Shown here in pieces: positions 14,031 to 59,755 of a stretch of DNA of 64,000 nt. This DNA comes from Escherichia coli O157:H7 (lineage in GTDB: Bacteria; Pseudomonadota; Gammaproteobacteria; Enterobacterales; Enterobacteriaceae), in the NCBI RefSeq assembly GCF_013167455.1, contig NZ_CP038330.1; one strand, written 5' to 3'. Under the pieces are notes generated by a model. The model ran no database searches. It was not told the origin of the DNA and saw only the letters and a program-made list of their open reading frames with translations. The position numbers were made by a program, and so were the translations under genes. How positions within the stretch are numbered: position 1 is the first letter of the stretch; every line of letters starts with the position of its first letter.

Positions 14031-14336
14031 TTATCCCACTCTATTGTAAACAAGACATTTTTATCTTTTATATTCAATGGCTTATTTTCCTGCTAATTGG
14101 TAATACCATGAAAAATACCATGCTCAGAAAAGGCTTAACAATATTTTGAAAAATTGCCTACTGAGCGCTGCCGCACAGCTCCATAGGCCGCTTTCCTGGC
14201 TTTGCTTCCAGATGTATGCTATTCTGCTCCTGCAGCTAATGGATCACCGCAAACAGGTTACTCGCCTGGGGATTCCCTTTCGACCCGAGCATCCGTATGA
14301 GACTCATGCTCGATTATTATTATTATAGAAGCCCCC

Positions 14337-15152
14337 ATGAATAAATCGCTCATCATTTTCGGCATCGTCAACATAACCTCGGACAGTTTCTCCGATGGAG
14401 GCCGGTATCTGGCGCCAGACGCAGCCATTGCGCAGGCGCGTAAGCTGATGGCCGAGGGGGCAGATGTGATCGACCTCGGTCCGGCATCCAGCAATCCCGA
14501 CGCCGCGCCTGTTTCGTCCGACACAGAAATCGCGCGTATCGCGCCGGTGCTGGACGCGCTCAAGGCAGATGGCATTCCCGTCTCGCTCGACAGTTATCAA
14601 CCCGCGACGCAAGCCTATGCCTTGTCGCGTGGTGTGGCCTATCTCAATGATATTCGCGGTTTTCCAGACGCTGCGTTCTATCCGCAATTGGCGAAATCAT
14701 CTGCCAAACTCGTCGTTATGCATTCGGTGCAAGACGGGCAGGCAGATCGGCGCGAGGCACCCGCTGGCGACATCATGGATCACATTGCGGCGTTCTTTGA
14801 CGCGCGCATCGCGGCGCTGACGGGTGCCGGTATCAAACGCAACCGCCTTGTCCTTGATCCCGGCATGGGGTTTTTTCTGGGGGCTGCTCCCGAAACCTCG
14901 CTCTCGGTGCTGGCGCGGTTCGATGAATTGCGGCTGCGCTTCGATTTGCCGGTGCTTCTGTCTGTTTCGCGCAAATCCTTTCTGCGCGCGCTCACAGGCC
15001 GTGGTCCGGGGGATGTCGGGGCCGCGACACTCGCTGCAGAGCTTGCCGCCGCCGCAGGTGGAGCTGACTTCATCCGCACACACGAGCCGCGCCCCTTGCG
15101 CGACGGGCTGGCGGTATTGGCGGCGCTGAAAGAAACCGCAAGAATTCGTTAA
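14337..15152 (+). CDS. sul2: sulfonamide-resistant dihydropteroate synthase Sul2
   Basis: 271 aa, MNKSLIIFGIVNITSDSFSDGGRY..., recognised as Sul2. Confidence 0.97.
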   Translation: MNKSLIIFGIVNITSDSFSDGGRYLAPDAAIAQARKLMAEGADVIDLGPASSNPDAAPVSSDTEIARIAPVLDALKADGIPVSLDSYQPATQAYALSRGVAYLNDIRGFPDAAFYPQLAKSSAKLVVMHSVQDGQADRREAPAGDIMDHIAAFFDARIAALTGAGIKRNRLVLDPGMGFFLGAAPETSLSVLARFDELRLRFDLPVLLSVSRKSFLRALTGRGPGDVGAATLAAELAAAAGGADFIRTHEPRPLRDGLAVLAALKETARIR

Positions 15153-15212
15153 CTGCACATTCGGGATATTTCTCTATATTCGCGCTTCATCAGAAAACTG
15201 AAGGAACCTCCA

Positions 15213-16016
15213 TTGAATCGAACTAATATTTTTTTTGGTGAATCGCATTCTGACTGGTTGCCTGTCAGAGGCGGAGAATCTGGTGATTTTGTTTTTCGAC
15301 GTGGTGACGGGCATGCCTTCGCGAAAATCGCACCTGCTTCCCGCCGCGGTGAGCTCGCTGGAGAGCGTGACCGCCTCATTTGGCTCAAAGGTCGAGGTGT
15401 GGCTTGCCCCGAGGTCATCAACTGGCAGGAGGAACAGGAGGGTGCATGCTTGGTGATAACGGCAATTCCGGGAGTACCGGCGGCTGATCTGTCTGGAGCG
15501 GATTTGCTCAAAGCGTGGCCGTCAATGGGGCAGCAACTTGGCGCTGTTCACAGCCTATCGGTTGATCAATGTCCGTTTGAGCGCAGGCTGTCGCGAATGT
15601 TCGGACGCGCCGTTGATGTGGTGTCCCGCAATGCCGTCAATCCCGACTTCTTACCGGACGAGGACAAGAGTACGCCGCAGCTCGATCTTTTGGCTCGTGT
15701 CGAACGAGAGCTACCGGTGCGGCTCGACCAAGAGCGCACCGATATGGTTGTTTGCCATGGTGATCCCTGCATGCCGAACTTCATGGTGGACCCTAAAACT
15801 CTTCAATGCACGGGTCTGATCGACCTTGGGCGGCTCGGAACAGCAGATCGCTATGCCGATTTGGCACTCATGATTGCTAACGCCGAAGAGAACTGGGCAG
15901 CGCCAGATGAAGCAGAGCGCGCCTTCGCTGTCCTATTCAATGTATTGGGGATCGAAGCCCCCGACCGCGAACGCCTTGCCTTCTATCTGCGATTGGACCC
16001 TCTGACTTGGGGTTGA
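15213..16016 (+). CDS. strA: aminoglycoside 3''-phosphotransferase APH(3'')-Ib
   Basis: 267 aa, MNRTNIFFGESHSDWLPVRGGESGDFVFRRG..., recognised as StrA. Confidence 0.97.
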   Translation: MNRTNIFFGESHSDWLPVRGGESGDFVFRRGDGHAFAKIAPASRRGELAGERDRLIWLKGRGVACPEVINWQEEQEGACLVITAIPGVPAADLSGADLLKAWPSMGQQLGAVHSLSVDQCPFERRLSRMFGRAVDVVSRNAVNPDFLPDEDKSTPQLDLLARVERELPVRLDQERTDMVVCHGDPCMPNFMVDPKTLQCTGLIDLGRLGTADRYADLALMIANAEENWAAPDEAERAFAVLFNVLGIEAPDRERLAFYLRLDPLTWG

Positions 16017-16852
16017 TGTTCATGCCGCCTGTTTTTCCTGCTCATTGGCACGTTTCGCAACCTGTTCTCATTGCGGACACCTTTTCCAGCCTCGTTTGGA
16101 AAGTTTCATTGCCAGACGGGACTCCTGCAATCGTCAAGGGATTGAAACCTATAGAAGACATTGCTGATGAACTGCGCGGGGCCGACTATCTGGTATGGCG
16201 CAATGGGAGGGGAGCAGTCCGGTTGCTCGGTCGTGAGAACAATCTGATGTTGCTCGAATATGCCGGGGAGCGAATGCTCTCTCACATCGTTGCCGAGCAC
16301 GGCGACTACCAGGCGACCGAAATTGCAGCGGAACTAATGGCGAAGCTGTATGCCGCATCTGAGGAACCCCTGCCTTCTGCCCTTCTCCCGATCCGGGATC
16401 GCTTTGCAGCTTTGTTTCAGCGGGCGCGCGATGATCAAAACGCAGGTTGTCAAACTGACTACGTCCACGCGGCGATTATAGCCGATCAAATGATGAGCAA
16501 TGCCTCGGAACTGCGTGGGCTACATGGCGATCTGCATCATGAAAACATCATGTTCTCCAGTCGCGGCTGGCTGGTGATAGATCCCGTCGGTCTGGTCGGT
16601 GAAGTGGGCTTTGGCGCCGCCAATATGTTCTACGATCCGGCTGACAGAGACGACCTTTGTCTCGATCCTAGACGCATTGCACAGATGGCGGACGCATTCT
16701 CTCGTGCGCTGGACGTCGATCCGCGTCGCCTGCTCGACCAGGCGTACGCTTATGGGTGCCTTTCCGCAGCTTGGAACGCGGATGGAGAAGAGGAGCAACG
16801 CGATCTAGCTATCGCGGCCGCGATCAAGCAGGTGCGACAGACGTCATACTAG
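16016..16852 (+). CDS. strB: aminoglycoside 6-phosphotransferase APH(6)-Id
   Basis: 278 aa starting MFMPPVFPAHWHVSQ at the internal ATG overlapping the strA stop. Confidence 0.97.
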   Translation: MFMPPVFPAHWHVSQPVLIADTFSSLVWKVSLPDGTPAIVKGLKPIEDIADELRGADYLVWRNGRGAVRLLGRENNLMLLEYAGERMLSHIVAEHGDYQATEIAAELMAKLYAASEEPLPSALLPIRDRFAALFQRARDDQNAGCQTDYVHAAIIADQMMSNASELRGLHGDLHHENIMFSSRGWLVIDPVGLVGEVGFGAANMFYDPADRDDLCLDPRRIAQMADAFSRALDVDPRRLLDQAYAYGCLSAAWNADGEEEQRDLAIAAAIKQVRQTSY

Positions 16853-17431: not shown

Positions 17432-18082
17432 TCAATCGTCACCCTTTCTCGGTCCTTCAACGTTCCTGACAACGAGCCTCCTTTTCGCCAATCCATCGAC
17501 AATCACCGCGAGTCCCTGCTCGAACGCTGCGTCCGGACCGGCTTCGTCGAAGGCGTCTATCGCGGCCCGCAACAGCGGCGAGAGCGGAGCCTGTTCAACG
17601 GTGCCGCCGCGCTCGCCGGCATCGCTGTCGCCGGCCTGCTCCTCAAGCACGGCCCCAACAGTGAAGTAGCTGATTGTCATCAGCGCATTGACGGCGTCCC
17701 CGGCCGAAAAACCCGCCTCGCAGAGGAAGCGAAGCTGCGCGTCGGCCGTTTCCATCTGCGGTGCGCCCGGTCGCGTGCCGGCATGGATGCGCGCGCCATC
17801 GCGGTAGGCGAGCAGCGCCTGCCTGAAGCTGCGGGCATTCCCGATCAGAAATGAGCGCCAGTCGTCGTCGGCTCTCGGCACCGAATGCGTATGATTCTCC
17901 GCCAGCATGGCTTCGGCCAGTGCGTCGAGCAGCGCCCGCTTGTTCCTGAAGTGCCAGTAAAGCGCCGGCTGCTGAACCCCCAACCGTTCCGCCAGTTTGC
18001 GTGTCGTCAGACCGTCTACGCCGACCTCGTTCAACAGGTCCAGGGCGGCACGGATCACTGTATTCGGCTGCAACTTTGTCAT
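17432..18082 (-). CDS. tetR: tetracycline repressor TetR(A)
   Basis: 216 aa from MTKLQPNTVIRAALDLLNEVGVDGLTTRKLAERLGV; ORF track over-extends the N-terminus. Confidence 0.95.
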   Translation of the reverse strand: MTKLQPNTVIRAALDLLNEVGVDGLTTRKLAERLGVQQPALYWHFRNKRALLDALAEAMLAENHTHSVPRADDDWRSFLIGNARSFRQALLAYRDGARIHAGTRPGAPQMETADAQLRFLCEAGFSAGDAVNALMTISYFTVGAVLEEQAGDSDAGERGGTVEQAPLSPLLRAAIDAFDEAGPDAAFEQGLAVIVDGLAKRRLVVRNVEGPRKGDD

Positions 18083-18084
18083 GC

Positions 18085-18140
18085 TTGACACTTTATCACT
18101 GATAAACATAATATGTCCACCAACTTATCAGTGATAAAGA
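18085..18140. promoter_or_regulatory. tet operator/promoter region
   Basis: Two palindromic operators (TTTATCACTGATAAACA and CTTATCAGTGATAAAGA) between divergent tetR and tet(A). Confidence 0.7.
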
Positions 18141-18187: not shown

Positions 18188-19387
18188 GTGAAACCCAACA
18201 GACCCCTGATCGTAATTCTGAGCACTGTCGCGCTCGACGCTGTCGGCATCGGCCTGATTATGCCGGTGCTGCCGGGCCTCCTGCGCGATCTGGTTCACTC
18301 GAACGACGTCACCGCCCACTATGGCATTCTGCTGGCGCTGTATGCGTTGATGCAATTTGCCTGCGCACCTGTGCTGGGCGCGCTGTCGGATCGTTTCGGG
18401 CGGCGGCCGGTCTTGCTCGTCTCGCTGGCCGGCGCTGCTGTCGACTACGCCATCATGGCGACGGCGCCTTTCCTTTGGGTTCTCTATATCGGGCGGATCG
18501 TGGCCGGCATCACCGGGGCGACTGGGGCGGTAGCCGGCGCTTATATTGCCGATATCACTGATGGCGATGAGCGCGCGCGGCACTTCGGCTTCATGAGCGC
18601 CTGTTTCGGGTTCGGGATGGTCGCGGGACCTGTGCTCGGTGGGCTGATGGGCGGTTTCTCCCCCCACGCTCCGTTCTTCGCCGCGGCAGCCTTGAACGGC
18701 CTCAATTTCCTGACGGGCTGTTTCCTTTTGCCGGAGTCGCACAAAGGCGAACGCCGGCCGTTACGCCGGGAGGCTCTCAACCCGCTCGCTTCGTTCCGGT
18801 GGGCCCGGGGCATGACCGTCGTCGCCGCCCTGATGGCGGTCTTCTTCATCATGCAACTTGTCGGACAGGTGCCGGCCGCGCTTTGGGTCATTTTCGGCGA
18901 GGATCGCTTTCACTGGGACGCGACCACGATCGGCATTTCGCTTGCCGCATTTGGCATTCTGCATTCACTCGCCCAGGCAATGATCACCGGCCCTGTAGCC
19001 GCCCGGCTCGGCGAAAGGCGGGCACTCATGCTCGGAATGATTGCCGACGGCACAGGCTACATCCTGCTTGCCTTCGCGACACGGGGATGGATGGCGTTCC
19101 CGATCATGGTCCTGCTTGCTTCGGGTGGCATCGGAATGCCGGCGCTGCAAGCAATGTTGTCCAGGCAGGTGGATGAGGAACGTCAGGGGCAGCTGCAAGG
19201 CTCACTGGCGGCGCTCACCAGCCTGACCTCGATCGTCGGACCCCTCCTCTTCACGGCGATCTATGCGGCTTCTATAACAACGTGGAACGGGTGGGCATGG
19301 ATTGCAGGCGCTGCCCTCTACTTGCTCTGCCTGCCGGCGCTGCGTCGCGGGCTTTGGAGAAATTCTTCAAATTCCCGTTGCACATAG
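18188..19387 (+). CDS. tet(A): tetracycline efflux MFS transporter TetA(A), last ~9 codons replaced by ISCR2-derived sequence
   Basis: GTG start (VKPNRPLIVILSTVALDAVGIG...); 12-TM MFS; C-terminus ...RRGLWRNSSNSRCT diverges from the remembered native ...GLWSGAGQRADR at ~19355, where the ISCR2 5'-end sequence begins. Confidence 0.9.
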   Translation: MKPNRPLIVILSTVALDAVGIGLIMPVLPGLLRDLVHSNDVTAHYGILLALYALMQFACAPVLGALSDRFGRRPVLLVSLAGAAVDYAIMATAPFLWVLYIGRIVAGITGATGAVAGAYIADITDGDERARHFGFMSACFGFGMVAGPVLGGLMGGFSPHAPFFAAAALNGLNFLTGCFLLPESHKGERRPLRREALNPLASFRWARGMTVVAALMAVFFIMQLVGQVPAALWVIFGEDRFHWDATTIGISLAAFGILHSLAQAMITGPVAARLGERRALMLGMIADGTGYILLAFATRGWMAFPIMVLLASGGIGMPALQAMLSRQVDEERQGQLQGSLAALTSLTSIVGPLLFTAIYAASITTWNGWAWIAGAALYLLCLPALRRGLWRNSSNSRCT

Positions 19388-19660
19388 CCCGGCAATTCCT
19401 TTCCCTGCTCTGCCATAAGCGCAGCGAATGCCGGGTAATACTCGTCAACGATCTGATAGAGAAGGGTTTGCTCGGGTCGGTGGCTCTGGTAACGACCAGT
19501 ATCCCGATCCCGGCTGGCCGTCCTGGCCGCCACATGAGGCATGTTCCGCGTCCTTGCAATACTGTGTTTACATACAGTCTATCGCTTAGCGGAAAGTTCT
19601 TTTACCCTCAGCCGAAATGCCTGCCGTTGCTAGACATTGCCAGCCAGTGCCCGTCACTCC
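19356..19660 (-). mobile_element. truncated ISCR2 copy (terIS-side ~305 bp including the first 62 codons of rcr2)
   Basis: Identical to 23641-23945 of the complete ISCR2; encodes MPHVAARTASRDRD...EFEEFLQ then diverges. Confidence 0.8.
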
Positions 19661-19959
19661 GCGGTCTTCACTGCGTGATCGAGTTGATCGACACCCGCCG
19701 TGACACGCTCCATGAAGTGCCTGCCTGCGTCTGTTAGCCGAACGCCCCGCGCATGGCGCTCAAATAGCAGGACACCAAGGTTATCCTCCAGCGCTTTCAC
19801 ACGCGCGCTGACGCTCGACTGGCTGATACCAAGTGCCTTGGCCGCATGCCGAAAATTCAGATGCTCGGCGACGGCGATGAACTGAACAAGGGAAATGAGC
19901 GGTATCCTGCCAGACAGGATACCGACATTCACGAGGTTTCGATGGTTAGTGCGCCGCAT
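19654..19959 (-). pseudogene. truncated LysR-family regulator (N-terminal HTH fragment)
   Basis: 101-aa fragment with LysR HTH (FIAVAEHLNFRHAAKALGISQSSVSARVKALE); cut by the ISCR2 fragment; typical floR-associated lysR remnant. Confidence 0.7.
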
Positions 19960-19986
19960 CGGAGCGGGCCTGCTACCAGTCGTCGG

Positions 19987-21201
19987 TTAGACGACTGGCG
20001 ACTTCTCGGTGGCAGCCCCACGGAGCCGAAGGAGCACCAGCCCCAACGAAACCAGTACCGCCATCGCCGTGGCGTAACAGATCACGGGCCACGCTGTGTC
20101 ACCGTTTAAAAGTGCCACCGCCAATGTCCCGACAATGCTGACTATCAGGCTTTGAACGCAGAAGTAGAACGCGACCGCTGATCCCGCGATGTCGTCGAAC
20201 TCTGCCAAAGCGCCGTTCGCGGTAACGGACACCGTGAAGACAATACCGACCGCGACAACCCACATCGGTAGGATGAAGGTGAGGAATGACGGCGAGCCGT
20301 AAAGTTCGCCGATCCCCAACAGGACCGCTCCGCAAACAAGCAACGCCATCCCACGCGCCACGCATCCTGCGATGCCCCATCTGGCGACAAAGGACTTCGC
20401 GAAACGGGTTGTCACGATCATTACAAGCGCGACAGTGGCGAAGGCAAAGCTGAATCCGATCTCGGAATATTCCGCTTGGCCTATGAGCACACGGGGAGCC
20501 GTCGAGAAGAAGACGAAGAAGGTGCCCATAACGGCGCTAAAGCCGACAGTGTAAACCCAAAAAGCCGGACTCGCGAAGATCGGCAAGACAGATCGGCGCG
20601 TCTTGACTTGATCCAGAGGGCGGGTTTCGTGCCACCTGAAACCCGCATTTAGGAGTGCGAGCATCGCCAGTATAGCCAAAGTAATGAATATCGCCTGCCA
20701 TCCCAAGAACTCGCCGATCAATGCTCCGGCGATAGGGCCGAGCGCAGGCACGAACGCCAGTATCGAACTGAAAAGGCCGTAGATGACGACACCCTCAGGA
20801 CGGTTGGCATAAACGTCGCGAACCGTCGCGAACGTCGCCACCAGCATGGCCGACGCGCCCACTGCTTGAAGTAGACGGAAAGCGACAAAGGCCGGTGCAG
20901 TTGAAGACCAAGCTGCTCCCAGAGACGCAATGACGAAAGCCGTTGCGCCCGCAAGTAGAATTGGCCGTCGCCCGATTCTGTCTGAGAGCGGACCAAAAAT
21001 CACCTGGCCCACGCCGAGCATCACCATATAGAGGCTCAACGTGAGTTGGATCATAGCGGGCGTCGTGTTCAGGATGCCGGGCATCGCTGGAACGACAGGG
21101 AGATAAATATCCATCGCCAGTGAAGCGAGGATGTCGAAAGGAGCCATCAGCAGCAGTGCTGCCGGCAGCGTATAGGCCCACGCGGGGCGTGTGGTGGTCA
21201 T
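19987..21201 (-). CDS. floR: florfenicol/chloramphenicol efflux MFS transporter FloR
   Basis: 404 aa, MTTTRPAWAYTLPAALLLMAPFDILASLAMDIYLPVVPAMP..., recognised as FloR. Confidence 0.97.
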   Translation of the reverse strand: MTTTRPAWAYTLPAALLLMAPFDILASLAMDIYLPVVPAMPGILNTTPAMIQLTLSLYMVMLGVGQVIFGPLSDRIGRRPILLAGATAFVIASLGAAWSSTAPAFVAFRLLQAVGASAMLVATFATVRDVYANRPEGVVIYGLFSSILAFVPALGPIAGALIGEFLGWQAIFITLAILAMLALLNAGFRWHETRPLDQVKTRRSVLPIFASPAFWVYTVGFSAVMGTFFVFFSTAPRVLIGQAEYSEIGFSFAFATVALVMIVTTRFAKSFVARWGIAGCVARGMALLVCGAVLLGIGELYGSPSFLTFILPMWVVAVGIVFTVSVTANGALAEFDDIAGSAVAFYFCVQSLIVSIVGTLAVALLNGDTAWPVICYATAMAVLVSLGLVLLRLRGAATEKSPVV

Positions 21202-21417
21202 GACGAATCAACCCTCGATTAAGGAATACCGGGCGACGTCTGCTCGTCAGCAATCAGATGAGACTAGCCTTACAGAGCGCCGCAACAACAATACTGGTTG
21301 TTGCGGCTTACTTGTCTGCTGACTTGGAATTTCCCATCTGATTACTCCACGCTTACGAATATGAATTGCTACATTTTATCCGATTATCTTTTGCTTCGCA
21401 ATGCGGCATGGGCGCAC

Positions 21418-22302
21418 TCAGCGTTCCAGCCCCCTCTGCCGCCCTAACTGCCACGACACCGACCCGCCCTGCACGATGCCCATAACCTCGCGGCCGAGTT
21501 GGCGGTCGATGATCGGCCGCCACGGGACAAGGGTGAACTCATGGGATTTCTCGACCACGGCGAACTTGCCGCTCGATAGATGCACGGTTCCGGTAAACTT
21601 GCCGCTGACGCTCTCGCCGTCCGTGGCGGCGCGGAACGGCAGGCCCTTACTCAAAGCCATATCCGATCCGACGCCGGCTACCTCGCGCTCCCGCAGGATG
21701 GCGAGAAGGTTGCGCCGGTAGAAGACGCGGCTGTCCCGGCTGCGGGTGGCGTCGCCCTGTTCGATATGGTGCTCGCGGCGCTGGTCCATGGCTTCGCGGA
21801 CTTGTTGCCCGAAGCCGGTTGGCGCAAGGTCGGCCGTCTCGCCGTGGATCAGCCGCCGGTCCAGCCAGGTCGCGCCGTCCGATCCGATCTGTTTGTTCAG
21901 ATCGACCGGGGAAAGGACGCGAACGCTGGCCTGACTGTCTCGGCCGGCGTCATGGGCGGCGGCACGGCTGACCAGATCATCGGGGATGCGCCATTGGTCG
22001 GCGTCGATCCGCTCGACGATACCGGCCCGGCGTAGCGCCTCCAGCCGGCGCACATGGGCATCGACATAGCCCTCATAGTCGCCGCCTGGAACGCGGCACG
22101 TATAGGAAGAATAAACGCCCTTTTCACCCAAGTCCAACAGCTTTGGACCGCAGTTGACTCTTTCGACACCCCTGCGATGCAACCCAATCCGGCTGACGGG
22201 GAGCCAGCAACGCTGAAAATTTACCCTCCTCTTTCCCACTAGCGGCTCCTTTTCCGACAACCAGCACGGCGGATCCCTGCCGCGGCGCTGTGAACGCAGC
22301 AT
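21418..22302 (-). pseudogene. relaxase/VirD2-like fragment associated with the ISCR2-floR unit
   Basis: 294-aa ORF between floR and ISCR2; matches the usual virD2-remnant context (recollection); no intact relaxase motifs checked. Confidence 0.55.
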
Positions 22303-22309
22303 TTTGATT

Positions 22310-23945
22310 GGTATCGTTGGCCTTCAGGCTCGTCAGTCAAACAGACCCAGGAGCAGCTCAGCCGGTGGCGCCCGGCTTTCGGGTAACGCCCTGGTCCCGC
22401 TGGTTTCGGCTTTGTGCTTCAGGTGATCAAGGATCTGCTTGATCACTATAGGGTCTTCAATGCAGGCGATGACTTTCATGGCGCCGCCGCAGCCGCTGCA
22501 GGTCTCGATGTCGATATTGAAAACACGCTTGAGCCGTTGCGCCCATGTCATCGACGCTCGCCGTTGTGCTGGTGTTGCCGGTTCATCAGCCACCCTGACC
22601 TTGTTGCCCCTGCCCCGTTTTGCCGGCGTGACCAACGCCCGGTGCCGACTGTTGGGTGCGAACACCCCGTGGAAGCGGGTTAGGTTGACTCTGGGCTTCG
22701 GTACCAGGGCGGCCAGCCTTGCAATGAAATCCAATGGTTCGAAAATGACGTGCGTGGTGCCGTCCCGGTACGGCGTCTTGAGCTGGTAGCGCACGTTGCC
22801 GCCTCGTGTTAACGACAGCCGCTTCTCGGATACCGCCGGGCGGCTGATGTACCGGCACAGCCGTTCGAGCTTCTTGCGTTCATCGGCCCTGGCCGCCACG
22901 CCGGCGTGCAGGCTGGACCCGGCTACCTTGCCAATCCCGTCACCGAACGGATCACCACTGGTCGGCAGAGTTTGCAAAGTGAACACCTTTCGCCCCGCCT
23001 GTGAACCGACAGCGATACGGTAAGTGATCGAGTGCCCCAGCAGGGGTGTCATCGGGTCGTCATCCACCGCATCCGAGGCCAGATAGCTGTTTTCGACATC
23101 CCGTTCCAGCAGGCCTTGCCGTTCCAGATAGCGACCCACCCGGTGGGCGATGGTGTGCGTCAGCTGGGTGAGCTCTGGGCTGGTCGGCGCCTTGACCCAG
23201 CGGAAACGCGCTGAGCCGTGGGATTGCTCGACATACACACCGTCGAGAAACAGCATGTGGAAGTGAACATTCAGATTGAGCGCCGATCCAAAACGCTGGA
23301 TCAGGGTGACCGCGCCCGTCTTGGCCACTTGGTGGGTATGGCCCGCTTTCTTGACCAGGTGCGTGGCAATGACGCGGTAAACGATGCCCAGCACCCACCC
23401 CATGATCTCGGGCCGGCTGGCAAACAGGAAACGCAGCTGAAACGGGAAGCTCAACACCCACTGACGCATGGGTTGTTCAGGCAGTACTTCATCAACCAGC
23501 AAGGCGGCACTTTCGGCCATCCGCCGCGCCCCACAGCTCGGGCAGAAACCGCGACGCTTACAGCTGAAAGCGACCAGGTGCTCGGCGTGGCAAGACTCGC
23601 AGCGAACCCGTAGAAAGCCATGCTCCAGCCGCCCGCATTGGAGAAATTCTTCAAATTCCCGTTGCACATAGCCCGGCAATTCCTTTCCCTGCTCTGCCAT
23701 AAGCGCAGCGAATGCCGGGTAATACTCGTCAACGATCTGATAGAGAAGGGTTTGCTCGGGTCGGTGGCTCTGGTAACGACCAGTATCCCGATCCCGGCTG
23801 GCCGTCCTGGCCGCCACATGAGGCATGTTCCGCGTCCTTGCAATACTGTGTTTACATACAGTCTATCGCTTAGCGGAAAGTTCTTTTACCCTCAGCCGAA
23901 ATGCCTGCCGTTGCTAGACATTGCCAGCCAGTGCCCGTCACTCCC
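22310..23945 (-). mobile_element. ISCR2 (IS91-like rolling-circle element), complete copy; oriIS-side boundary approximate
   Basis: Contains intact rcr2; terIS-side end at 23945 defined by the end of identity with the truncated copy at 19660. Confidence 0.85.
22333..23826 (-). CDS. rcr2: ISCR2 rolling-circle transposase (IS91 family)
   Basis: 497 aa; HUH-type motifs (HFHMLFLDGVY), zinc-binding CxxC pairs; recognised sequence. Confidence 0.95.
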   Translation of the reverse strand: MPHVAARTASRDRDTGRYQSHRPEQTLLYQIVDEYYPAFAALMAEQGKELPGYVQREFEEFLQCGRLEHGFLRVRCESCHAEHLVAFSCKRRGFCPSCGARRMAESAALLVDEVLPEQPMRQWVLSFPFQLRFLFASRPEIMGWVLGIVYRVIATHLVKKAGHTHQVAKTGAVTLIQRFGSALNLNVHFHMLFLDGVYVEQSHGSARFRWVKAPTSPELTQLTHTIAHRVGRYLERQGLLERDVENSYLASDAVDDDPMTPLLGHSITYRIAVGSQAGRKVFTLQTLPTSGDPFGDGIGKVAGSSLHAGVAARADERKKLERLCRYISRPAVSEKRLSLTRGGNVRYQLKTPYRDGTTHVIFEPLDFIARLAALVPKPRVNLTRFHGVFAPNSRHRALVTPAKRGRGNKVRVADEPATPAQRRASMTWAQRLKRVFNIDIETCSGCGGAMKVIACIEDPIVIKQILDHLKHKAETSGTRALPESRAPPAELLLGLFD

Positions 23946-24036
23946 ACTCGATTGTAAACAAGCACACAAAACCCTTTAGTGACAACAATTTGCAAGAACT
24001 ATCAGGCTCAGTGCCATGAAAAATACCATGACCAGA

Positions 24037-24965: not shown

Positions 24966-25118
24966 CGGCGCGGCTACTGGCTTCGTCCTGCGCATACTTG
25001 CGGGCTCCTTTGGGCATACGCAAAGTGTCCGGTCATGCTACCCCCGGCCAAAAAGGCCGTCATGCGATTTATCTTGGCCGGGTCGTTATTGGCGGGTCTA
25101 AATGGCCGCTCCGTGGAT

Positions 25119-25345
25119 CTCATCGCCAGAAATGGCGATGCGAGATCCAGGGCAGGGCGGCCGCCATCGTCAGACCTGGCGATGGTCGACGCCGGCGCGC
25201 ATCGTCGGATGTGGCGATGCGAGCTCGAGGTCGGTGGCCACCGCCGGCGACCTGGTGCCATCGTCGGCAATGGCGATGCTGCAGCTCGACGTGCGCGGCC
25301 TGGTCGTCTCGGCATCGTCGGATGCGGCGATGCTCGAGCGAGGCG
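25119..25345. repeat. GC-rich iteron-like direct repeats (~5 copies)
   Basis: Repeated CATCGTC(A/G)G...TGGCGATGC units at ~25119, 25157, 25199, 25257, 25312, between the resolvase gene and IS26. Confidence 0.5.
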
Positions 25346-25574
25346 AAAAAAAACCGCCTCGGGGTGTCCGAGGCGGCAAGTCTGCATGCGGTTCAGGGAG
25401 GAAGAAACCGCGCCGGCGATCAGGGAGGAAAACCGCGCGGCCTGATGTGCAGCTCGGCCACTTTAGCCGGATTTTTCGACTTATCCGATGCGAGCGGCCC
25501 GCCGTGGGCGCTGCTCGATCTGCTGTTGCTTTTTCTCGACGTGCTTCTGCTCCTGGTGCTGCTGCTCGTCGCGC

Positions 25575-26394
25575 GGCACTGTTGCAAAGTTAGCGATGAG
25601 GCAGCCTTTTGTCTTATTCAAAGGCCTTACATTTCAAAAACTCTGCTTACCAGGCGCATTTCGCCCAGGGGATCACCATAATAAAATGCTGAGGCCTGGC
25701 CTTTGCGTAGTGCACGCATCACCTCAATACCTTTGATGGTGGCGTAAGCCGTCTTCATGGATTTAAATCCCAGCGTGGCGCCGATTATCCGTTTCAGTTT
25801 GCCATGATCGCATTCAATCACGTTGTTCCGGTACTTAATCTGTCGGTGTTCAACGTCAGACGGGCACCGGCCTTCGCGTTTGAGCAGAGCAAGCGCGCGA
25901 CCATAGGCGGGCGCTTTATCCGTGTTGATGAATCGCGGGATCTGCCACTTCTTCACGTTGTTGAGGATTTTACCCAGAAACCGGTATGCAGCTTTGCTGT
26001 TACGACGGGAGGAGAGATAAAAATCGACAGTGCGGCCCCGGCTGTCGACGGCCCGGTACAGATACGCCCAGCGGCCATTGACCTTCACGTAGGTTTCATC
26101 CATGTGCCACGGGCAAAGATCGGAAGGGTTACGCCAGTACCAGCGCAGCCGTTTTTCCATTTCAGGCGCATAACGCTGAACCCAGCGGTAAATCGTGGAG
26201 TGATCGACATTCACTCCGCGTTCAGCCAGCATCTCCTGCAGCTCACGGTAACTGATGCCGTATTTGCAGTACCAGCGTACGGCCCACAGAATGATGTCAC
26301 GCTGAAAATGCCGGCCTTTGAATGGGTTCATGTGCAGCTCCATCAGCAAAAGGGGATGATAAGTTTATCACCACCGACTATTTGCAACAGTGCC
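25575..26394 (-). mobile_element. IS26, complete 820-bp copy
   Basis: 14-bp terminal IRs GGCACTGTTGCAAA at 25575-25588 and (reverse complement) 26381-26394; intact tnp26. Confidence 0.95.
25627..26331 (-). CDS. tnp26: IS26 transposase Tnp26 (wild-type Gly184)
   Basis: 234 aa MNPFKGRHFQRDIILWAVRWY...; contains RIIGATLGF. Confidence 0.95.
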   Translation of the reverse strand: MNPFKGRHFQRDIILWAVRWYCKYGISYRELQEMLAERGVNVDHSTIYRWVQRYAPEMEKRLRWYWRNPSDLCPWHMDETYVKVNGRWAYLYRAVDSRGRTVDFYLSSRRNSKAAYRFLGKILNNVKKWQIPRFINTDKAPAYGRALALLKREGRCPSDVEHRQIKYRNNVIECDHGKLKRIIGATLGFKSMKTAYATIKGIEVMRALRKGQASAFYYGDPLGEMRLVSRVFEM

Positions 26395-27098
26395 TACATT
26401 TCAAAAACTCTGCTTACCAGGCGCATTTCGCCCAGGGGATCACCATAATAAAATGCTGAGGCCTGGCCTTTGCGTAGTGCACGCATCACCTCAATACCTT
26501 TGATGGTGGCGTAAGCCGTCTTCATGGATTTAAATCCCAGCGTGGCGTTGATTATCCGTTTCAGTTTGCCATGATCGCATTCAATCACGTTGTTCCGGTA
26601 CTTAATCTGTCGGTGTTCAACGTCAGACGGGCACCGGCCTTCGCGTTTGAGCAGAGCAAGCGCGCGACCATAGGCGGGCGCTTTATCCGTGTTGATGAAT
26701 CGTGGGATCTGCCACTTCTTCACGTTGTTGAGGATTTTACCCAGAAACCGGTATGCAGCTTTGCTGTTACGACGGGAGGAGAGATAAAAATCGACAGTGC
26801 GGCCCCGGCTGTCGACGGCCCGGTACAGATACGCCCAGCGGCCATTGACCTTCACGTAGGTTTCATCCATGTGCCACGGGCAAAGATCGGAAGGGTTACG
26901 CCAGTACCAGCGCAGCCGTTTTTCCATTTCAGGCGCATAACGCTGAACCCAGCGGTAAATCGTGGAGTGATCGACATTCACTCCGCGTTCAGCCAGCATC
27001 TCCTGCAGCTCACGGTAACTGATGCCGTATTTGCAGTACCAGCGTACGGCCCACAGAATGATGTCACGCTGAAAATGCCGGCCTTTGAATGGGTTCAT
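26394..27098 (-). CDS. tnp26: IS26 transposase, G184N variant
   Basis: Same as Tnp26 except RIINATLGF (GGC->AAC); stop codon recreated as TAG at the junction. Confidence 0.9.
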   Translation of the reverse strand: MNPFKGRHFQRDIILWAVRWYCKYGISYRELQEMLAERGVNVDHSTIYRWVQRYAPEMEKRLRWYWRNPSDLCPWHMDETYVKVNGRWAYLYRAVDSRGRTVDFYLSSRRNSKAAYRFLGKILNNVKKWQIPRFINTDKAPAYGRALALLKREGRCPSDVEHRQIKYRNNVIECDHGKLKRIINATLGFKSMKTAYATIKGIEVMRALRKGQASAFYYGDPLGEMRLVSRVFEM

Positions 27099-27161
27099 GT
27101 GCAGCTCCATCAGCAAAAGGGGATGATAAGTTTATCACCACCGACTATTTGCAACAGTGCC
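26395..27161 (-). mobile_element. IS26 truncated tandem copy 2 (767 bp; lacks the 53-bp tnp-distal end including one IR)
   Basis: Begins at the tnp stop codon directly abutting the IRL of copy 1; ends with TTTGCAACAGTGCC. Confidence 0.85.
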
Positions 27162-27865
27162 TACATTTCAAAAACTCTGCTTACCAGGCGCATTTCGCCC
27201 AGGGGATCACCATAATAAAATGCTGAGGCCTGGCCTTTGCGTAGTGCACGCATCACCTCAATACCTTTGATGGTGGCGTAAGCCGTCTTCATGGATTTAA
27301 ATCCCAGCGTGGCGTTGATTATCCGTTTCAGTTTGCCATGATCGCATTCAATCACGTTGTTCCGGTACTTAATCTGTCGGTGTTCAACGTCAGACGGGCA
27401 CCGGCCTTCGCGTTTGAGCAGAGCAAGCGCGCGACCATAGGCGGGCGCTTTATCCGTGTTGATGAATCGTGGGATCTGCCACTTCTTCACGTTGTTGAGG
27501 ATTTTACCCAGAAACCGGTATGCAGCTTTGCTGTTACGACGGGAGGAGAGATAAAAATCGACAGTGCGGCCCCGGCTGTCGACGGCCCGGTACAGATACG
27601 CCCAGCGGCCATTGACCTTCACGTAGGTTTCATCCATGTGCCACGGGCAAAGATCGGAAGGGTTACGCCAGTACCAGCGCAGCCGTTTTTCCATTTCAGG
27701 CGCATAACGCTGAACCCAGCGGTAAATCGTGGAGTGATCGACATTCACTCCGCGTTCAGCCAGCATCTCCTGCAGCTCACGGTAACTGATGCCGTATTTG
27801 CAGTACCAGCGTACGGCCCACAGAATGATGTCACGCTGAAAATGCCGGCCTTTGAATGGGTTCAT
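27161..27865 (-). CDS. tnp26: IS26 transposase, G184N variant
   Basis: Identical to the copy-2 transposase. Confidence 0.9.
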   Translation of the reverse strand: MNPFKGRHFQRDIILWAVRWYCKYGISYRELQEMLAERGVNVDHSTIYRWVQRYAPEMEKRLRWYWRNPSDLCPWHMDETYVKVNGRWAYLYRAVDSRGRTVDFYLSSRRNSKAAYRFLGKILNNVKKWQIPRFINTDKAPAYGRALALLKREGRCPSDVEHRQIKYRNNVIECDHGKLKRIINATLGFKSMKTAYATIKGIEVMRALRKGQASAFYYGDPLGEMRLVSRVFEM

Positions 27866-27928
27866 GTGCAGCTCCATCAGCAAAAGGGGATGATAAGTTT
27901 ATCACCACCGACTATTTGCAACAGTGCC
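27162..27928 (-). mobile_element. IS26 truncated tandem copy 3 (767 bp)
   Basis: Identical unit to copy 2; terminal IR TTTGCAACAGTGCC ends at 27928. Confidence 0.85.
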
Positions 27929-28074
27929 CCCAATGCGCTGTCCAGTCATGGAATTCCCTGCAAAATGTCAGGGAAGACTCTATGACCTTCAACGAGATAT
28001 GTCAATAAATTCAAAATTCAATCCTATCCTGACGCAATTTACACATGGCATCTGACATCAGGTTAGGGTATGCC

Positions 28075-29064
28075 TCAGTCTGACAGTGATGAGTCGCAGG
28101 CGTTCGGATCGGCATCGGTTTCGCTCCCGGTCTTGGCGCGCGCCTGGAAGCGCTGATAGCACTCCAGCCCGCAGAAGTGCTCGACGTATTCCGCGCCTTC
28201 CGGGGTGAAGGCGGCATCGAGCGGGATTTCCTTGCAGCACACGCAGCAACTGGTGGCAGTCGGATCATTTGCATTCATGGTGGCACCCCTCCATTGACTG
28301 ACGAAGACGGCGAATGCCGCCGCCGGCATCGGCTTGGCGAACAGGAAGCCTTGTCCTGTGTCGCAGTCCGCTTGTCGCAACAAATCAAGACTCGCCGATG
28401 TTTCCACGCCTTCGGCCACTACTTCCATGCCAAGCCCATGCGCAAGCTGAATCACGGTGCGCACGATGGTCTGGTCGCGGTGGTCGTTGGCGAGTCCGGC
28501 GACAAACGATTGGTCGATCTTGAGCGTGCTGATGGGGCAGCATTTCAGGTGTTGCAGGCAGGAATAGCCGGTGCCGAAGTCGTCGGCGGCGAAGCGCACA
28601 CCGATCTGTCGCAAAGCTTCCAGGGCGGGGAAGATCGCCGGATCACCGAACGCAACCGATTCGGTCAGCTCAATTTCAAGATACGCGGCGGGCAACCCGG
28701 CATCGGCCAGCACGCCCTTTACCCACTTGTCGAAATCTGGCCCCACTTGGCTCGCCGAAACATTGACGGCCAGCCGGAACGGTTGCCATGCCAGCACCCG
28801 CCAGTCGCGCATTTGACGGCAGGCTGCGCCCAGCACCCATGCGCCGATTTCCGGCATCAGGCCGGACGATTCGATCACGGGCAGGAACTGGCCCGGCGGC
28901 AACAGTCCGAGCGTCGGATGACGCCAGCGCAACAGGGCTTCCGCGCCGACAATCTGCTCACTGCGCAAATCGACAATCGGCTGGTAGTGCAGCTCAAGCT
29001 GCCCGCGCTCGACCGCCTGCGCCAGTTGCGCCACTGTCCATTCAATTGGCTGGGAAGCGCTCAT
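28075..29064 (-). CDS. urf2: EAL-domain protein Urf2 of mer modules
   Basis: Start [16 protein letters not shown] overlapping the merE stop (ATGA); EAL signatures (EALLRW, ELTES); ORF track over-extends to 29550. Confidence 0.8.
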
Positions 29065-29297
29065 GATCGACCTCTGAAGGCCCGCAGCAGCCGCGTCACA
29101 GACAGGACAAACAAGCCGGTCAGCGTGAGGGCTGCAATACCCCAGTGCTCGCCGATGAACGCGCCGGCCGTCGTGCCGGCCAGCACAATGGCGAGAATCG
29201 GCAAATGACAGGGACAGGTGAGCACCGCCAGCGCACCCCACAGGTAGCCGGTGAACGGCTTGTGTGTCTCGGCCGGCATGCGCTCGGGGCTGTTCAT
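29061..29297 (-). CDS. merE: MerE mercury transporter
   Basis: 78 aa, two TM helices with CPCH motif. Confidence 0.9.
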
Positions 29298-29659
29298 GGC
29301 AAACTCTCCGCATGCTGTGCCGGCGCGGTCGGCATGGCGGCCAACTGCACTTCCAGATTGGCCAACGCTTCGCGCCGGCGTTCGACGAACTGACGCAGCA
29401 CAGCAAGCTGCGCGGCAGTTTCATCGCAGTTCGCCGCATCCAGCGCCCGGCACAGCCGCGCCAATGCGCCGAGGCCGATGCCCGCCTCGAAGGCGGCCCG
29501 CACGAAGCACAGTCGCTGCAAGGCGGCGTCATCGAACAGGCCGTAGCCACCCGTGGTGCAGGCGACTGGCCGCAGCAATCCGCGCAGCAGGTAGTCGCGC
29601 ACGATATGCACGCTCACCCCGGCATCAAGGGCCAGCCGGGACACCGTGTAGGCGTTCAT
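29294..29659 (-). CDS. merD: MerD co-regulator
   Basis: Start [23 protein letters not shown] with GGAGGTG RBS; MerR-like HTH. Confidence 0.9.
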
Positions 29660-29770
29660 CGAACACCTCCTTTTGGTCGGTTCACGGCAATGCATATACC
29701 GTTTCGCCGAGTTCAATCCGCGCGCTGCGAATCCGATGCCGGTGCCGTAGAACATTGGGTCGATATCCGA

Positions 29771-30409
29771 TCACGGTGTCCTAGATGACATGGTCTGCAA
29801 CAGATGTCGATTAAACTCCTGGCCCAAGCCGAAAGCCTCGTGGACACTGACGATCGCCAATCCTTCCAATCCTTGATGCTTGGAGGCCCAGTCTTCCGCC
29901 GTCGGGACAGATGCAAAGAAATGTACATGGCAACAGAAGGACTGACGAACGTCGGCTGCTTCCTGCGGCAATACCAAGGACACCGCCATGCCGGCAGGTT
30001 CGACAGCCTGTATCTCGCTGGGTGAAACCGTGAGTGAAACGGGTGCTCCGGTTGCAGCGCAATGCGATGAGACGCGAGCTGTACGGCCGATCAGCGCCGG
30101 AAATATCAAGGTGTCCAGCGCGCACCAGGCATACAGACGGCGGTCGTCAATTTCAAAGACATACGAAGTCTCGCGCAAGGTGAGGCCGTAGCCGATGATG
30201 TTCCCATCTTTGTCATATTCGGTACTGGTGGCCTGTTCGAGTACGGCGGCCACTCGCTCAGCGGGCCAGTCGAGAATCCCGGCAAGTGTCGTTCGTGAAA
30301 CCGGACGCCCCTTGGCGAGTTCCCGCAGTAGCGGGACCAAGAGATCCGCAGTACCATTGGTACGATTGACCGAAGTGAGACGTTCTAAAATATATGGGGC
30401 GAGCTTCAT
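29771..30409 (-). CDS. merB: organomercurial lyase MerB
   Basis: Start [19 protein letters not shown]; conserved Cys/Asp region; position between merA and merD. Confidence 0.9.
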
Positions 30410-30423
30410 GGTTCCATCTCCTT

Positions 30424-32172
<1,749 letters not shown>

Positions 32173-32180
32173 TCAGTGCC

Positions 32181-32456
32181 TCACTTCTTGACGCTGGACG
32201 GATAGCCCGCGTCTTCGGTGGCCTTGGTCAGCTTCTGCACGCTGGTCTTGGCATCATCGAAGGTGACAACCGCTTCGCGTGTCTCGAAGGTCACGTTAAC
32301 TTTGCTGACGCCTTCGACCTTGGAAATCGCCTTCTTAACGGTGATCGGACAAGCGGAGCAGGTCATGCCCGGTACGGACAGCGTGACGGTCTGGGTGGCG
32401 GCCCACACGGGGGCAACAACGGCAGCGATGGCGAGAGAGGCAAACAGTTTTTTCAT
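32181..32456 (-). CDS. merP: periplasmic mercury-binding protein MerP
   Basis: 91 aa; signal peptide; GMTCSAC metal-binding motif. Confidence 0.95.
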   Translation of the reverse strand: MKKLFASLAIAAVVAPVWAATQTVTLSVPGMTCSACPITVKKAISKVEGVSKVNVTFETREAVVTFDDAKTSVQKLTKATEDAGYPSSVKK

Positions 32457-32471
32457 GATGAACTCCTGTGA

Positions 32472-32822
32472 TTAATAGAAAAATGGCATGACGTAGGGAA
32501 ATCCGAGCGCGACCAGAACCAGCGCGGCCACGACCCAGAAAATGAGCTTGTAAGTAGCGCGCACTTGGGGAATCGCACACACATCCCCTGGTTTGCAGGC
32601 TTGCGCCGGTCGGTAGATGCGCCGCCAGGCGAAAAACAGCGCCACCAACGCCGCGCCGATGAAGATCGGGCGATAAGGTTCCAACACCGTCAAGTTGCCG
32701 ATCCAAGCGCCGCTGAACCCCAGGGCGATCAGAACCAGCGGCCCCAGGCAGCAAGCCGAGGCGAGGATGGCGGCTAGCCCGCCAGTGAAGAGCGCCCCGC
32801 GCCCGTTTTGAGGTTCAGACAT
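32472..32822 (-). CDS. merT: mercuric transport protein MerT
   Basis: 116 aa; TM helices with CC pair (ASACCLGP). Confidence 0.95.
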
Positions 32823-32893
32823 ACGCTTGTCCTTTCAAATCTGGATTGGATAGCTTAAGCTTACTTCCGTACCAATGTACGGAGTCAAGCGAT
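32823..32893. promoter_or_regulatory. mer operator/promoter (divergent merR / merTPABDE)
   Basis: MerR dyad TCCGTAC-N4-GTACGGA at ~32866-32883 between divergent merT and merR. Confidence 0.8.
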
Positions 32894-33328
32894 ATGGAAA
32901 AAAATTTGGAGAATCTGACTATTGGCGTTTTCGCCAAGGCGGCCGGGGTCAACGTGGAAACAATCCGGTTCTATCAGCGCAAGGGCTTGTTGCCGGAGCC
33001 GGACAAGCCCTATGGCAGCATCCGCCGCTATGGCGAGGCGGATGTGACGCGGGTGCGCTTCGTGAAATCAGCCCAGCGGCTCGGATTCAGCCTCGACGAG
33101 ATCGCAGAGCTGCTGAGGCTGGATGACGGCACCCACTGCGAGGAAGCCAGCAGCCTGGCCGAGCACAAGCTTCAGGACGTGCGCGAAAAAATGACCGACC
33201 TGGCGCGCATGGAAACCGTGCTATCCGAACTTGTGTTCGCCTGCCATGCGCGGCAAGGGAACGTTTCTTGCCCGCTGATTGCTTCGCTGCAAGGGGAGAA
33301 AGAGCCGCGTGGTGCCGACGCGGTGTAG
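32894..33328 (+). CDS. merR: MerR transcriptional regulator
   Basis: 144 aa from [36 protein letters not shown] track over-extends upstream. Confidence 0.95.
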
Positions 33329-33344
33329 CCGAGGGTAGTTACGC

Positions 33345-33361
33345 CTTAGCGTGCTTTATTT
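33345..33361. repeat. inner part of the Tn21-family 38-bp terminal inverted repeat (mer end)
   Basis: CTTAGCGTGCTTTATTT immediately before the IS4321-like insertion; continues at 34689. Confidence 0.75.
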
Positions 33362-34688
33362 AATGAGATGGTCACTCCCTCCTTCCCGGTACTATGCTGA
33401 GGACAGGCTTTCATTCGGAGAACTATCATGGAAAACATTGCGCTCATTGGTATCGATCTGGGTAAAAACTCTTTCCATATTCATTGCCAGGATCGTCGCG
33501 GGAAGGCTGTTTACCGTAAAAAATTTACCCGGCCAAAGTTGATCGAATTTTTGGCGACATGCCCCGCTACAACCATCGCAATGGAAGCCTGTGGCGGTTC
33601 TCACTTTATGGCACGCAAGTTGGAAGAGTTGGGGCATTCCCCAAAGCTGATATCACCACAATTTGTCCGCCCGTTCGTTAAAAGCAATAAAAACGACTTT
33701 GTCGACGCCGAAGCTATTTGTGAAGCTGCATCGCGTCCGTCTATGCGTTTTGTGCAGCCCAGAACGGAATCTCAGCAGGCAATGCGGGCTCTGCATCGTG
33801 TCCGTGAATCCCTGGTTCAGGATAAGGTGAAAACAACCAATCAAATGCATGCTTTTCTGCTGGAATTTGGCATTAGCGTTCCCCGAGGAGCTGCCGTTAT
33901 TAGCCGACTGAGTACCATTCTTGAGGATAATAGTTTGCCTCTTTACCTCAGCCAGTTATTGCTGAAATTACAACAGCATTATCACTATCTTGTTGAGCAG
34001 ATTAAAGATCTGGAATCCCAGTTGAAACGAAAGTTGGACGAAGATGAGGTTGGACAGCGCTTGCTGAGCATTCCCTGCGTCGGAACACTGACAGCGAGTA
34101 CTATTTCAACTGAGATTGGCGACGGGAAGCAGTACGCCAGCAGCCGTGACTTTGCGGCGGCAACAGGGCTTGTACCTCGGCAGTACAGCACGGGAGGTAG
34201 GACGACATTGCTGGGAATTAGTAAGCGAGGTAATAAAAAGATCCGAACTTTGTTGGTTCAGTGTGCCAGGGTATTCATACAAAAACTGGAACACCAGTCT
34301 GGCAAATTGGCCGATTGGGTCAGGGATTTACTGTGCCGGAAAAGCAACTTTGTCGTCACTTGTGCTCTGGCAAACAAGCTGGCCAGAATAGCCTGGGCCC
34401 TAACGGCACGACAGCAAACTTATGTAGCATAACGGCAGAAATACACCGGTTTAAAGAATTACTGATCTGGTTTTGCGAATACTGATATTGATGATACTAA
34501 CGGCCCACCGGCCTGTTGAGGAACCTGTAAAACGGAAAGGCTCATTGAAGCCGTATATTTTCTGGAGGTTCATCAGGCGCGGAACTCATCAAGGCGCGGG
34601 AATAAAATCCCATTCAGACGCCGGATAGATTCAAGCAAGCCAACTTGTCGTCAAAATCGGTGTTGCAAAAACGGGAGTGACCATAGAT
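33362..34688 (+). mobile_element. IS4321/IS5075-like element (IS110 family), 1327 bp, inserted in the Tn21-family IR
   Basis: Length 1327 bp, IS110-family transposase, precisely splitting the 38-bp IR, the known target of IS4321/IS5075. Confidence 0.85.
33428..34432 (+). CDS. IS110-family transposase
   Basis: 334 aa; DEDD-type N-terminal domain (IGIDLGKNSFHIH) and C-terminal domain typical of IS110 family. Confidence 0.9.
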   Translation: MENIALIGIDLGKNSFHIHCQDRRGKAVYRKKFTRPKLIEFLATCPATTIAMEACGGSHFMARKLEELGHSPKLISPQFVRPFVKSNKNDFVDAEAICEAASRPSMRFVQPRTESQQAMRALHRVRESLVQDKVKTTNQMHAFLLEFGISVPRGAAVISRLSTILEDNSLPLYLSQLLLKLQQHYHYLVEQIKDLESQLKRKLDEDEVGQRLLSIPCVGTLTASTISTEIGDGKQYASSRDFAAATGLVPRQYSTGGRTTLLGISKRGNKKIRTLLVQCARVFIQKLEHQSGKLADWVRDLLCRKSNFVVTCALANKLARIAWALTARQQTYVA

Positions 34689-34709
34689 TCCGTTTTCTGA
34701 GACGACCCC
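34689..34709. repeat. outer part of the Tn21-family terminal inverted repeat; right boundary of the resistance island
   Basis: TCCGTTTTCTGAGACGACCCC, reverse complement of a GGGG..CTCAGAAAACGGA IR end. Confidence 0.7.
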
Positions 34710-59745: not shown

Positions 59746-59755
59746 GGGGGGCGGA

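Follow-up and report, generated by a model that had tools for sequence, protein, structure and literature searches.

An IncC plasmid resistance block of Escherichia coli O157:H7 in which two islands meet at an IS26 array, very probably as the result of an inversion

Background

In this work, we are presenting an analysis of a 64,000-nt stretch of contig NZ_CP038330.1 (RefSeq assembly GCF_013167455.1) of Escherichia coli O157:H7, hereafter the window, in which positions 14034-34709 form a 20.7-kb resistance block consisting of the island ARI-B, an array of IS26 units and the urf2-merEDBAPTR end of the island ARI-A of IncC plasmids. In pSN254 (NC_009140), the reference blaCMY-2 type 1 IncC plasmid from Salmonella Newport, these islands lie 100 kb apart (ARI-B at 19-32 kb, ARI-A at 120-149 kb), in agreement with the remark, made in an earlier sequence-only reading of the window, that the sul2 and mer islands usually occupy separate sites. 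The IS26 at the resG end of the pSN254 ARI-B (20337-21156) is opposite in orientation to the IS26 pair of ARI-A (141275-142861). The separated layout is far commoner than the joined one: the backbone/ARI-B junction was present in 656 plasmid records, and by far most of the matches listed for the ARI-A IS26 pair, from more than 100 records, had it in the normal surroundings.

Two described systems are closest to the block. In plasmids pEC6-1/2a and pSC1-1/2a ARI-A is split in two and ARI-B is inverted together with the adjacent backbone, a single IS26 connects the right end of ARI-B with the part on the mer side, and 8-bp repeats are absent (Front Microbiol 2020, PMC7652850). For the genomic island GIsul2, attachment sites of 19 bp have been defined: attR precedes sul2 by 304 bp, and 112-130 bp separate the ISCR2 gene from a third site upstream of it, attLR, which the proposed terIS only overlaps; the integration site of the island in IncC plasmids is reduced to GGGA, and this non-canonical site may, as suggested by the same authors, hamper excision (Zhang et al. 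2022, PMC9376610).

Results

Comparison with pSN254 by BLAST divides the window into collinear parts. Positions 1-26394, which run from the start of traI through the topoisomerase gene and parAB to ARI-B and its IS26, are the reverse complement of pSN254 46730-20337 with 3 mismatches (99.99% identity). Positions 26385-52439 correspond to pSN254 141319-167364, covering the ARI-A IS26 pair, urf2/mer, IS4321, rhs and the region on to traH, and 53750-64000 correspond to pSN254 167362-176473 and then 1-1138. On both sides of the IS26 array the adjoining 20 nt do not differ from those beside the resident pSN254 IS26 copies, and because these flanks are unchanged the event would have been a recombination between resident IS26 copies, with no new insertion or target duplication. 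Since more than 25 kb of backbone is reversed and the IS26 copies of pSN254 are oppositely oriented, this recombination points to inversion and not to deletion. The join was thus very probably made by an inversion between oppositely oriented IS26 copies of a pSN254-type IncC plasmid.

The array at the seam occupies exactly 25575-27928 (2354 bp). Its units, all on the minus strand, are one complete IS26 and two 767-bp copies, so that the sequence-only reading was right in placing IS26 where the islands are joined and wrong in seeing a single IS26 in what is a row of three units. The complete IS26 (25575-26394), 100% identical to the IS26 copies of pSN254, is 820 bp long, has both 14-bp terminal repeats and encodes the standard 234-aa transposase Tnp26. 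The 767-bp copies (26395-27161 and 27162-27928), identical to each other, keep the transposase gene and the left repeat and lack 53 bp at the right end (IRR), hence they are not complete insertion sequences (IS). Each of them abuts the left end of the preceding unit, the first one that of the complete IS26; the second is an extra unit that pSN254-type relatives do not have. At three positions they differ from the complete IS26, which results in the Tnp26 substitution G184N, and we take copies with this substitution to be the variant IS26-v1. Pong and colleagues are said to have tied G184N in 2019 to "IS26-v1, enhanced activity". At each junction (26394-26396 and 27161-27163) a TAG stop codon is rebuilt by the last C of the preceding left terminal repeat, and because the junction completes this codon both truncated copies still encode full-length Tnp26 (G184N). 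With one right end and three left ends in the array, "IS" units of 820, 1587 and 2354 bp are formally possible.

A total of 213 plasmid records, among them pSN254, pAR060302 and peH4H-type plasmids, contain the junction between IS26 and the copy without 53 bp (IS26-delta53), which, judging from this distribution, is an old feature of this ARI-A. Most simply, a complete IS26 would have made an adjacent deletion that stopped 53 bp inside a neighbouring IS26-v1, leaving the pair as it stands in pSN254. A later duplication of the 767-bp unit may have followed, with unequal crossing-over as the simplest route: the IS26 variants share 458 identical bp of the unit, so an exchange within this stretch would give a third unit with all the v1 differences. 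Relatives have one or two units at the seam against the three of the window. Amplification as a translocatable unit or pseudo-compound transposon was considered and rejected, as it needs a whole IS26 with a passenger and the period here is 767 bp, under the 820 bp of IS26. By its structure the array is a tandem of truncated IS and not an amplified translocatable unit.

The join itself is shared with other plasmids. Both flanks of the seam were found together in 17 plasmid records, and the join with the same urf2 variant is carried by pCMY (MT816498, E. coli ST10), KS-NP019_P2 (AP024125), pTHNK130-1, CP046034 and pSNE2-1923 (CP025275), while several further plasmids have ARI-B joined to a different mer/urf2 variant. 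In pCMY, a closed 168-kb circle, the reciprocal junction is present as well, in the order backbone-IS26-spacer-IS26-tniB-IS1353-IS1326-sul1...intI1-tnpR-tnpA-IS5075-inverted backbone, and its flank is the reverse complement of the tniB-side flank of pSN254. The arrangement is therefore already known, being present in several GenBank plasmids and described as an event type in print, and the sequence-only reading, which had taken it as out of the ordinary, has to be corrected on this point.

Two of these records show peculiarities of their own. The spacer between the two IS26 copies of the pCMY reciprocal junction, a 424-bp ars remnant at the ARI-B/backbone boundary (pCMY 20604-21027 versus pSN254 19913-20336), appears inverted relative to pSN254, to judge from a difference in sequence to the left of the second IS26; small flips of this type between IS26 copies have been mentioned before (PMC7652850). 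The 125-kb "linear" record of pSNE2-1923 (NZ_CP025275.1) has two copies of ARI-B. One stands in the normal context, except that an IS26/IS26-delta53 pair follows it; the other, in which floR and tetA are frameshifted, is joined to mer where the record ends. This duplication may reflect either mis-assembly or a mixed population of inversion isomers.

Several observations weigh against an inversion as the source of the arrangement seen here. The window contains one of the two inversion junctions, and further deletions elsewhere on the plasmid are possible; pSNE2-1923, one of the relatives with the join, is a linear and internally redundant record of doubtful assembly quality; and the three-unit array was not found in another record among the best 60 rows of the seam query, such repeats being easily miscounted in assemblies. 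An 867-nt query made of one 767-bp unit with both junctions gave 100% for every IS26-bearing record, overlapping pieces of single IS26 copies being joined. An assembly artefact, in which ARI-B was wrongly connected to mer through IS26 repeats or the 767-bp units were miscounted, would fit the absence of the three-unit array from these rows, the presence of several IS26 in such plasmids and the identity of the tandem units, and pSNE2-1923 illustrates how messy such assemblies get. We consider it improbable, though, since five or more plasmids, sequenced independently of each other, carry the join and one of these, a closed circle, shows the matching reciprocal junction too; the objection is left standing only for the copy number (three rather than two). 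We infer that the third unit is real rather than a miscount.

The remaining explanations fare worse than a faulty assembly. IS26-mediated deletions are common in IncC plasmids (pRM13514; PMC7652850), but a deletion keeps orientation, and here the backbone to the left of the island, from parAB to traI, runs opposite to the rhs-traFHG-repA side over at least 25 kb; moreover, inverted IS26 copies such as those of pSN254 yield an inversion instead. Deletion as the origin of the join, which we rate as very unlikely, is refuted by this synteny, and of the "IS26-mediated deletion or inversion" proposed in the sequence-only reading it is the inversion that agrees with pSN254 and with the reciprocal junction of pCMY. 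By intramolecular replicative transposition IS26 can also invert DNA (He et al. 2015), and a de novo event of this kind, from ARI-B to a target beside urf2, would produce a new IS26 copy together with an inversion. Its chances appear just as slight, as the IS26-urf2 and resG-IS26 junctions both exist already in pSN254, and neither a new insertion site nor an inverted 8-bp duplication is present. That the joined layout is ancestral and the separate one derived has in its favour the formal symmetry of an inversion, which can be read either way, and is next to negligible given the several hundred records of the separated layout against a handful with the join, and given that the joined layout splits ARI-A, normally one transposon with inverted repeats and TTGTA at its ends.

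The gene identities bear out the sequence-only description of the block as a composite of about 20.7 kb, placed between parA and rhs, that links sul2-strAB-tet(A)-floR/ISCR2 to a truncated mer transposon; the five junctions it had listed (about 14040, 19355, 25575, 27928 and 34709) are all real in the sequence, according to boundary mapping and direct reading. Listing of open reading frames (ORFs), repeat finding and direct reading gave the order of features from 14034 on. The first of them are sul2 (14337-15152, plus strand; NF000295 Sul2, 615 bits), strA or aph(3'')-Ib (15213-16016, plus; NF032895, 638 bits), strB or aph(6)-Id (16016-16852, plus; NF012171, 386 bits), tetR(A) (17432-18109, minus; NF010319, 305 bits) and tetA(A) (18188-19387, plus; NF012193, 893 bits). 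They are followed by a 307-bp ISCR2 remnant (19354-19660, minus), a truncated lysR (19654-19959, named after annotations in relatives), floR (19987-21201, minus; NF000219 FloR, 896 bits), a relaxase-like fragment with DUF3363 (21418-22302, partial RlxS match), a complete ISCR2 or ISVsa3 (22333-23944, minus; transposase gene 22333-23826; NF052416 ISCR clade Ia, 671 bits), a small ORF and the serine recombinase gene resG, after which comes the 2354-bp IS26 array. The proteins Sul2, APH(3'')-Ib, APH(6)-I, TetR, Tet(A), FloR, MerE/D/B/A/P/T/R and the IS110-family transposase scored above the NCBIfam curated cut-offs, and the ISCR transposase of the block was likewise named by NCBIfam. Rfam and Tandem Repeats Finder gave nothing further within the island.

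Beyond the array, the mer module of ARI-A (28075-33328) is 99.95% identical to pSN254 142.9-148.3 kb and has an NCBIfam match for each gene. It comprises, on the minus strand, urf2 with an EAL domain (28075-29064), merE, merD, merB, merA (30424-32109), merP and merT, and, on the plus strand, merR (32894-33328). The 38-bp Tn21-family terminal inverted repeat that follows (33345-34709, plus) is split into 17 nt (33345-33361) and 21 nt (34689-34709) by IS4321 (about 33362-34688; transposase gene 33428-34432; IS110-family match, 341 bits). Position 34709 is the final base of this repeat, and it is followed by TTGTA (34710-34714), the 5 bp of target duplicated when the ARI-A transposon originally inserted upstream of rhs, a pentamer present at both ARI-A ends in pSN254. 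The rhs-side boundary of ARI-A, inverted repeat plus TTGTA, is thereby present. A full ARI-A has tnp genes and a class 1 integron between both inverted repeats; the window holds its IS26-urf2-mer end, and by analogy with pCMY the rest would lie at the other inversion junction. On this side the block adjoins two small ORFs and rhs (36421-40674).

On the other side, the block is bordered by an ORF of 103 aa beside parA (13719-14030, minus), the final backbone gene before the island, which is WP_000338945.1 in every IncC relative and gave no NCBIfam match. Similarity to island-free IncC plasmids stops at 14037-14040, and that to the sul2 contexts of unrelated plasmids sets in at 14033-14035. The empty IncC site reads CATTTATCCC followed by CCTTAACTG, and the window reads CATTTATCCC followed by ACTCTATTG; from this comparison and the boundary mapping the island starts within TCCC at 14034-14037. 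ARI-B is thus inserted at its GGGA site upstream of the small ORF beside parA, with the right end of GIsul2 and sul2 at the boundary. It also has the common configuration sul2-strAB-tetRA-floR-ISCR2-resG ending in IS26, collinear with and more than 99.9% identical to pSN254 20337-32700.

The nature of this left boundary is given by a pair of attachment sites. Likeness between 14040-14125 and 23938-24030 had been noticed in the sequence-only reading, and it is real: a 21-mer (14034-14054 and 23942-23962, 20 of 21 positions identical; TCCCACTC[T/G]ATTGTAAACAAG) and an identical 17-mer (14106-14122 and 24014-24030; CCATGAAAAATACCATG) recur at the same 72-nt offset, with unrelated sequence in the 51 nt between them. 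In dinucleotide-preserving shuffles the 21-mer was never matched (0 matches), and the 17-mer was matched 0.14 times on average. The repeat had been interpreted as an ISCR2-associated left junction, an interpretation that does not hold, as the two copies are the attR/attLR pair of GIsul2 with the core GAGTGGGA (PMC9376610). We located attR at 14034-14122 (plus strand), 304 bp upstream of sul2, from the empty-site comparison, boundary mapping and motif searches, and attLR at 23942-24030 (plus), about 119 bp upstream of the ISCR2 gene, from motif searches and the same publication; the attR core TCCCACTC is the reverse complement of GAGTGGGA. Because the core, the published positions of the sites and the GGGA site all match the window, the left junction is, on this evidence, the right end of a decayed GIsul2 and the true left boundary of ARI-B, and not an ISCR2 rolling-circle junction. 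Flanked by attLR on the ISCR2 side and by attR on the sul2 side, each with the core GAGTGGGA, the 9.9-kb segment 14034-23962 is by these features a "CR2-sul2 unit" that has gained strAB, tetRA and floR. The island part of the window has no integrase gene.

Both motifs were searched for together, with a free gap of 40-62 nt, in a scan of one genome per species, which returned 66 sites in 65 loci of Proteobacteria and a few Bacteroidota; as exact motifs were demanded, the scan is biased. The sites had 12 different spacers of 51 or 52 nt, belonging by eye to at least 3 sequence classes, and several loci have an ISCR-like terIS sequence directly beside the core. Since 38 positions are invariant at a fixed spacing while the spacers have diverged beyond recognition, they point to a functional two-part arm, despite the bias of the search. 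Neither arm-type or binding sites nor the 17-mer sequence turned up in a term search of the GIsul2 text (PMC9376610). It is a tentative proposal, which we hold to be somewhat doubtful, that the attachment site of the GIsul2 family is a bipartite arm composed of a 21-bp core-proximal element and the 17-bp CCATGAAAAATACCATG placed 51-52 nt apart, with a freely diverging spacer, and that the integrase or AlpA might bind the 17-mer as an arm-type site.

The fusion of tetA with ISCR2 sequence was mapped in a similar way. Tet(A) genes of other contexts match the window up to 19359 and ISCR2 sequence matches from 19351-19354, which puts the fusion point within the shared TTGGAG at 19354-19359. As the sequence-only reading had stated, about the last 9 codons are replaced: the final residues SGAGQRADR of the Tn1721-type gene are RNSSNSRCT here, derived from internal ISCR2 sequence, and the length of 399 aa is unchanged by coincidence. 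The 307-bp remnant between tetA and the truncated lysR/floR module, which comprises the 5' part of the ISCR2 gene and the terIS end and is 100% identical to 23638-23944, is the trace of a second ISCR2. The terIS sequence GCCAGTGCCCGTCACTCCC ends at 23944-23945.

Between attLR and the IS26 array lies a remnant of the GIsul2 body (24258-25574, minus), made of resG (24258-24995) and its upstream region. The resG product is annotated as "Recombinase family protein" in relatives and has a weak serine-recombinase match. Upstream of the gene, at 25120-25343, there are three 32-nt copies with the inverted repeat CATCG(C/T)C-N6/7-GGCGATG, located 125-350 bp from resG at spacings of 79 and 113 bp, which look like a three-subsite res site.

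To judge from the reading frames, no gene of the block is lost or altered by the join, and because it alters no coding sequence the predicted resistance phenotype is that of both islands together, namely resistance to sulfonamides, streptomycin, tetracycline, phenicols and mercury or organomercury, just as with the separate islands. Farther along the window, a 1310-bp IS3-family element resembling IS629/IS1203 (52440-53749), 99.6-100% identical to E. coli copies, interrupts traH with a 3-bp GTT duplication; Rfam detected an ALIL frameshift pseudoknot in it at 52775-52891. The insertion should, by prediction, abolish self-transfer, and the element hints at E. coli or Shigella as the host. A related IS occurs at a different site in MT559987 and in pRM13514 and pRM12581, IncC plasmids of E. 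coli O145:H28, in which it lies in traF.

Discussion

Obtained results suggest the following history. The window belongs to the pSN254 / blaCMY-2 lineage of type 1 IncC plasmids. In the ancestral layout ARI-B, a decayed GIsul2 with gained strAB, tetRA and floR-ISCR2, would end in IS26 beside the resG remnant, and ARI-A, a Tn21-family transposon upstream of rhs, would hold an IS26 pair in the opposite orientation. Recombination between inverted IS26 copies would flip all the DNA between them, and both a RecA-dependent exchange and the conservative reaction of Tnp26 are compatible with the outcome. ARI-B would in this way come directly against the urf2-mer end of ARI-A, and the integron half would be carried to the other end of the inversion, outside the window.

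The block is a worked example of how IS26 reshuffles IncC plasmids without a change in gene content, and it brings little new biology. In annotation, a single parA-to-rhs "island" of this kind should be seen as two islands brought together by inversion, and the integron half of ARI-A is to be sought elsewhere on the plasmid. For plasmid typing, comparisons based on synteny can be misled by the joined layout, which is met again in several lineages. The varying copy number of the truncated IS26-v1 unit at the seam among relatives, as well as a two-part GIsul2 arm strict in sequence and spacing, are minor points for mobile-element specialists. If the 17-mer of this arm is indeed a binding site for the integrase or AlpA, the "CR" elements of the ISCR2 type would be satellites moving by site-specific recombination and equipped with a mimic of the arm of the island, and the 9.9-kb five-gene segment 14034-23962 would be excisable by an integrase supplied in trans.

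Among known systems, GIsul2 (PMC9376610) shares with the window the attR/attLR positions, the core GAGTGGGA, the GGGA insertion in IncC plasmids and the resG and ars remnant beyond attLR; in contrast to it, the window is without the integrase, alpA and the attL end, and has strAB, tetRA and floR inserted between sul2 and ISCR2. Plasmids pEC6-1/2a and pSC1-1/2a, likened here by their published description, represent the same type of event, but they are type 1/2 hybrid plasmids from China with other ARI-A content (PMC7652850). The O145:H28 plasmid pRM13514 differs in being an uninverted deletion derivative. Much nearer is pSN254, which is 99.95-99.99% identical across the window apart from the rearrangements and shares ARI-B, the mer end of ARI-A with IS4321 and the IS26/IS26-v1-delta53 junction, while it differs in its uninverted layout, in having two IS26 units beside urf2 where the window has three, and in having no IS in traH. 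The order parA - ARI-B - IS26 - urf2/mer - IS4321 - rhs is common to the window, pCMY, KS-NP019_P2, pTHNK130-1, CP046034 and pSNE2-1923, which are told apart by the content of the seam: one IS26 in pCMY and KS-NP019_P2, two units in pSNE2-1923, IS26-fosA3-IS26 in the HNK130 plasmids pTHNK130-1 and CP046034, and three units in the window.

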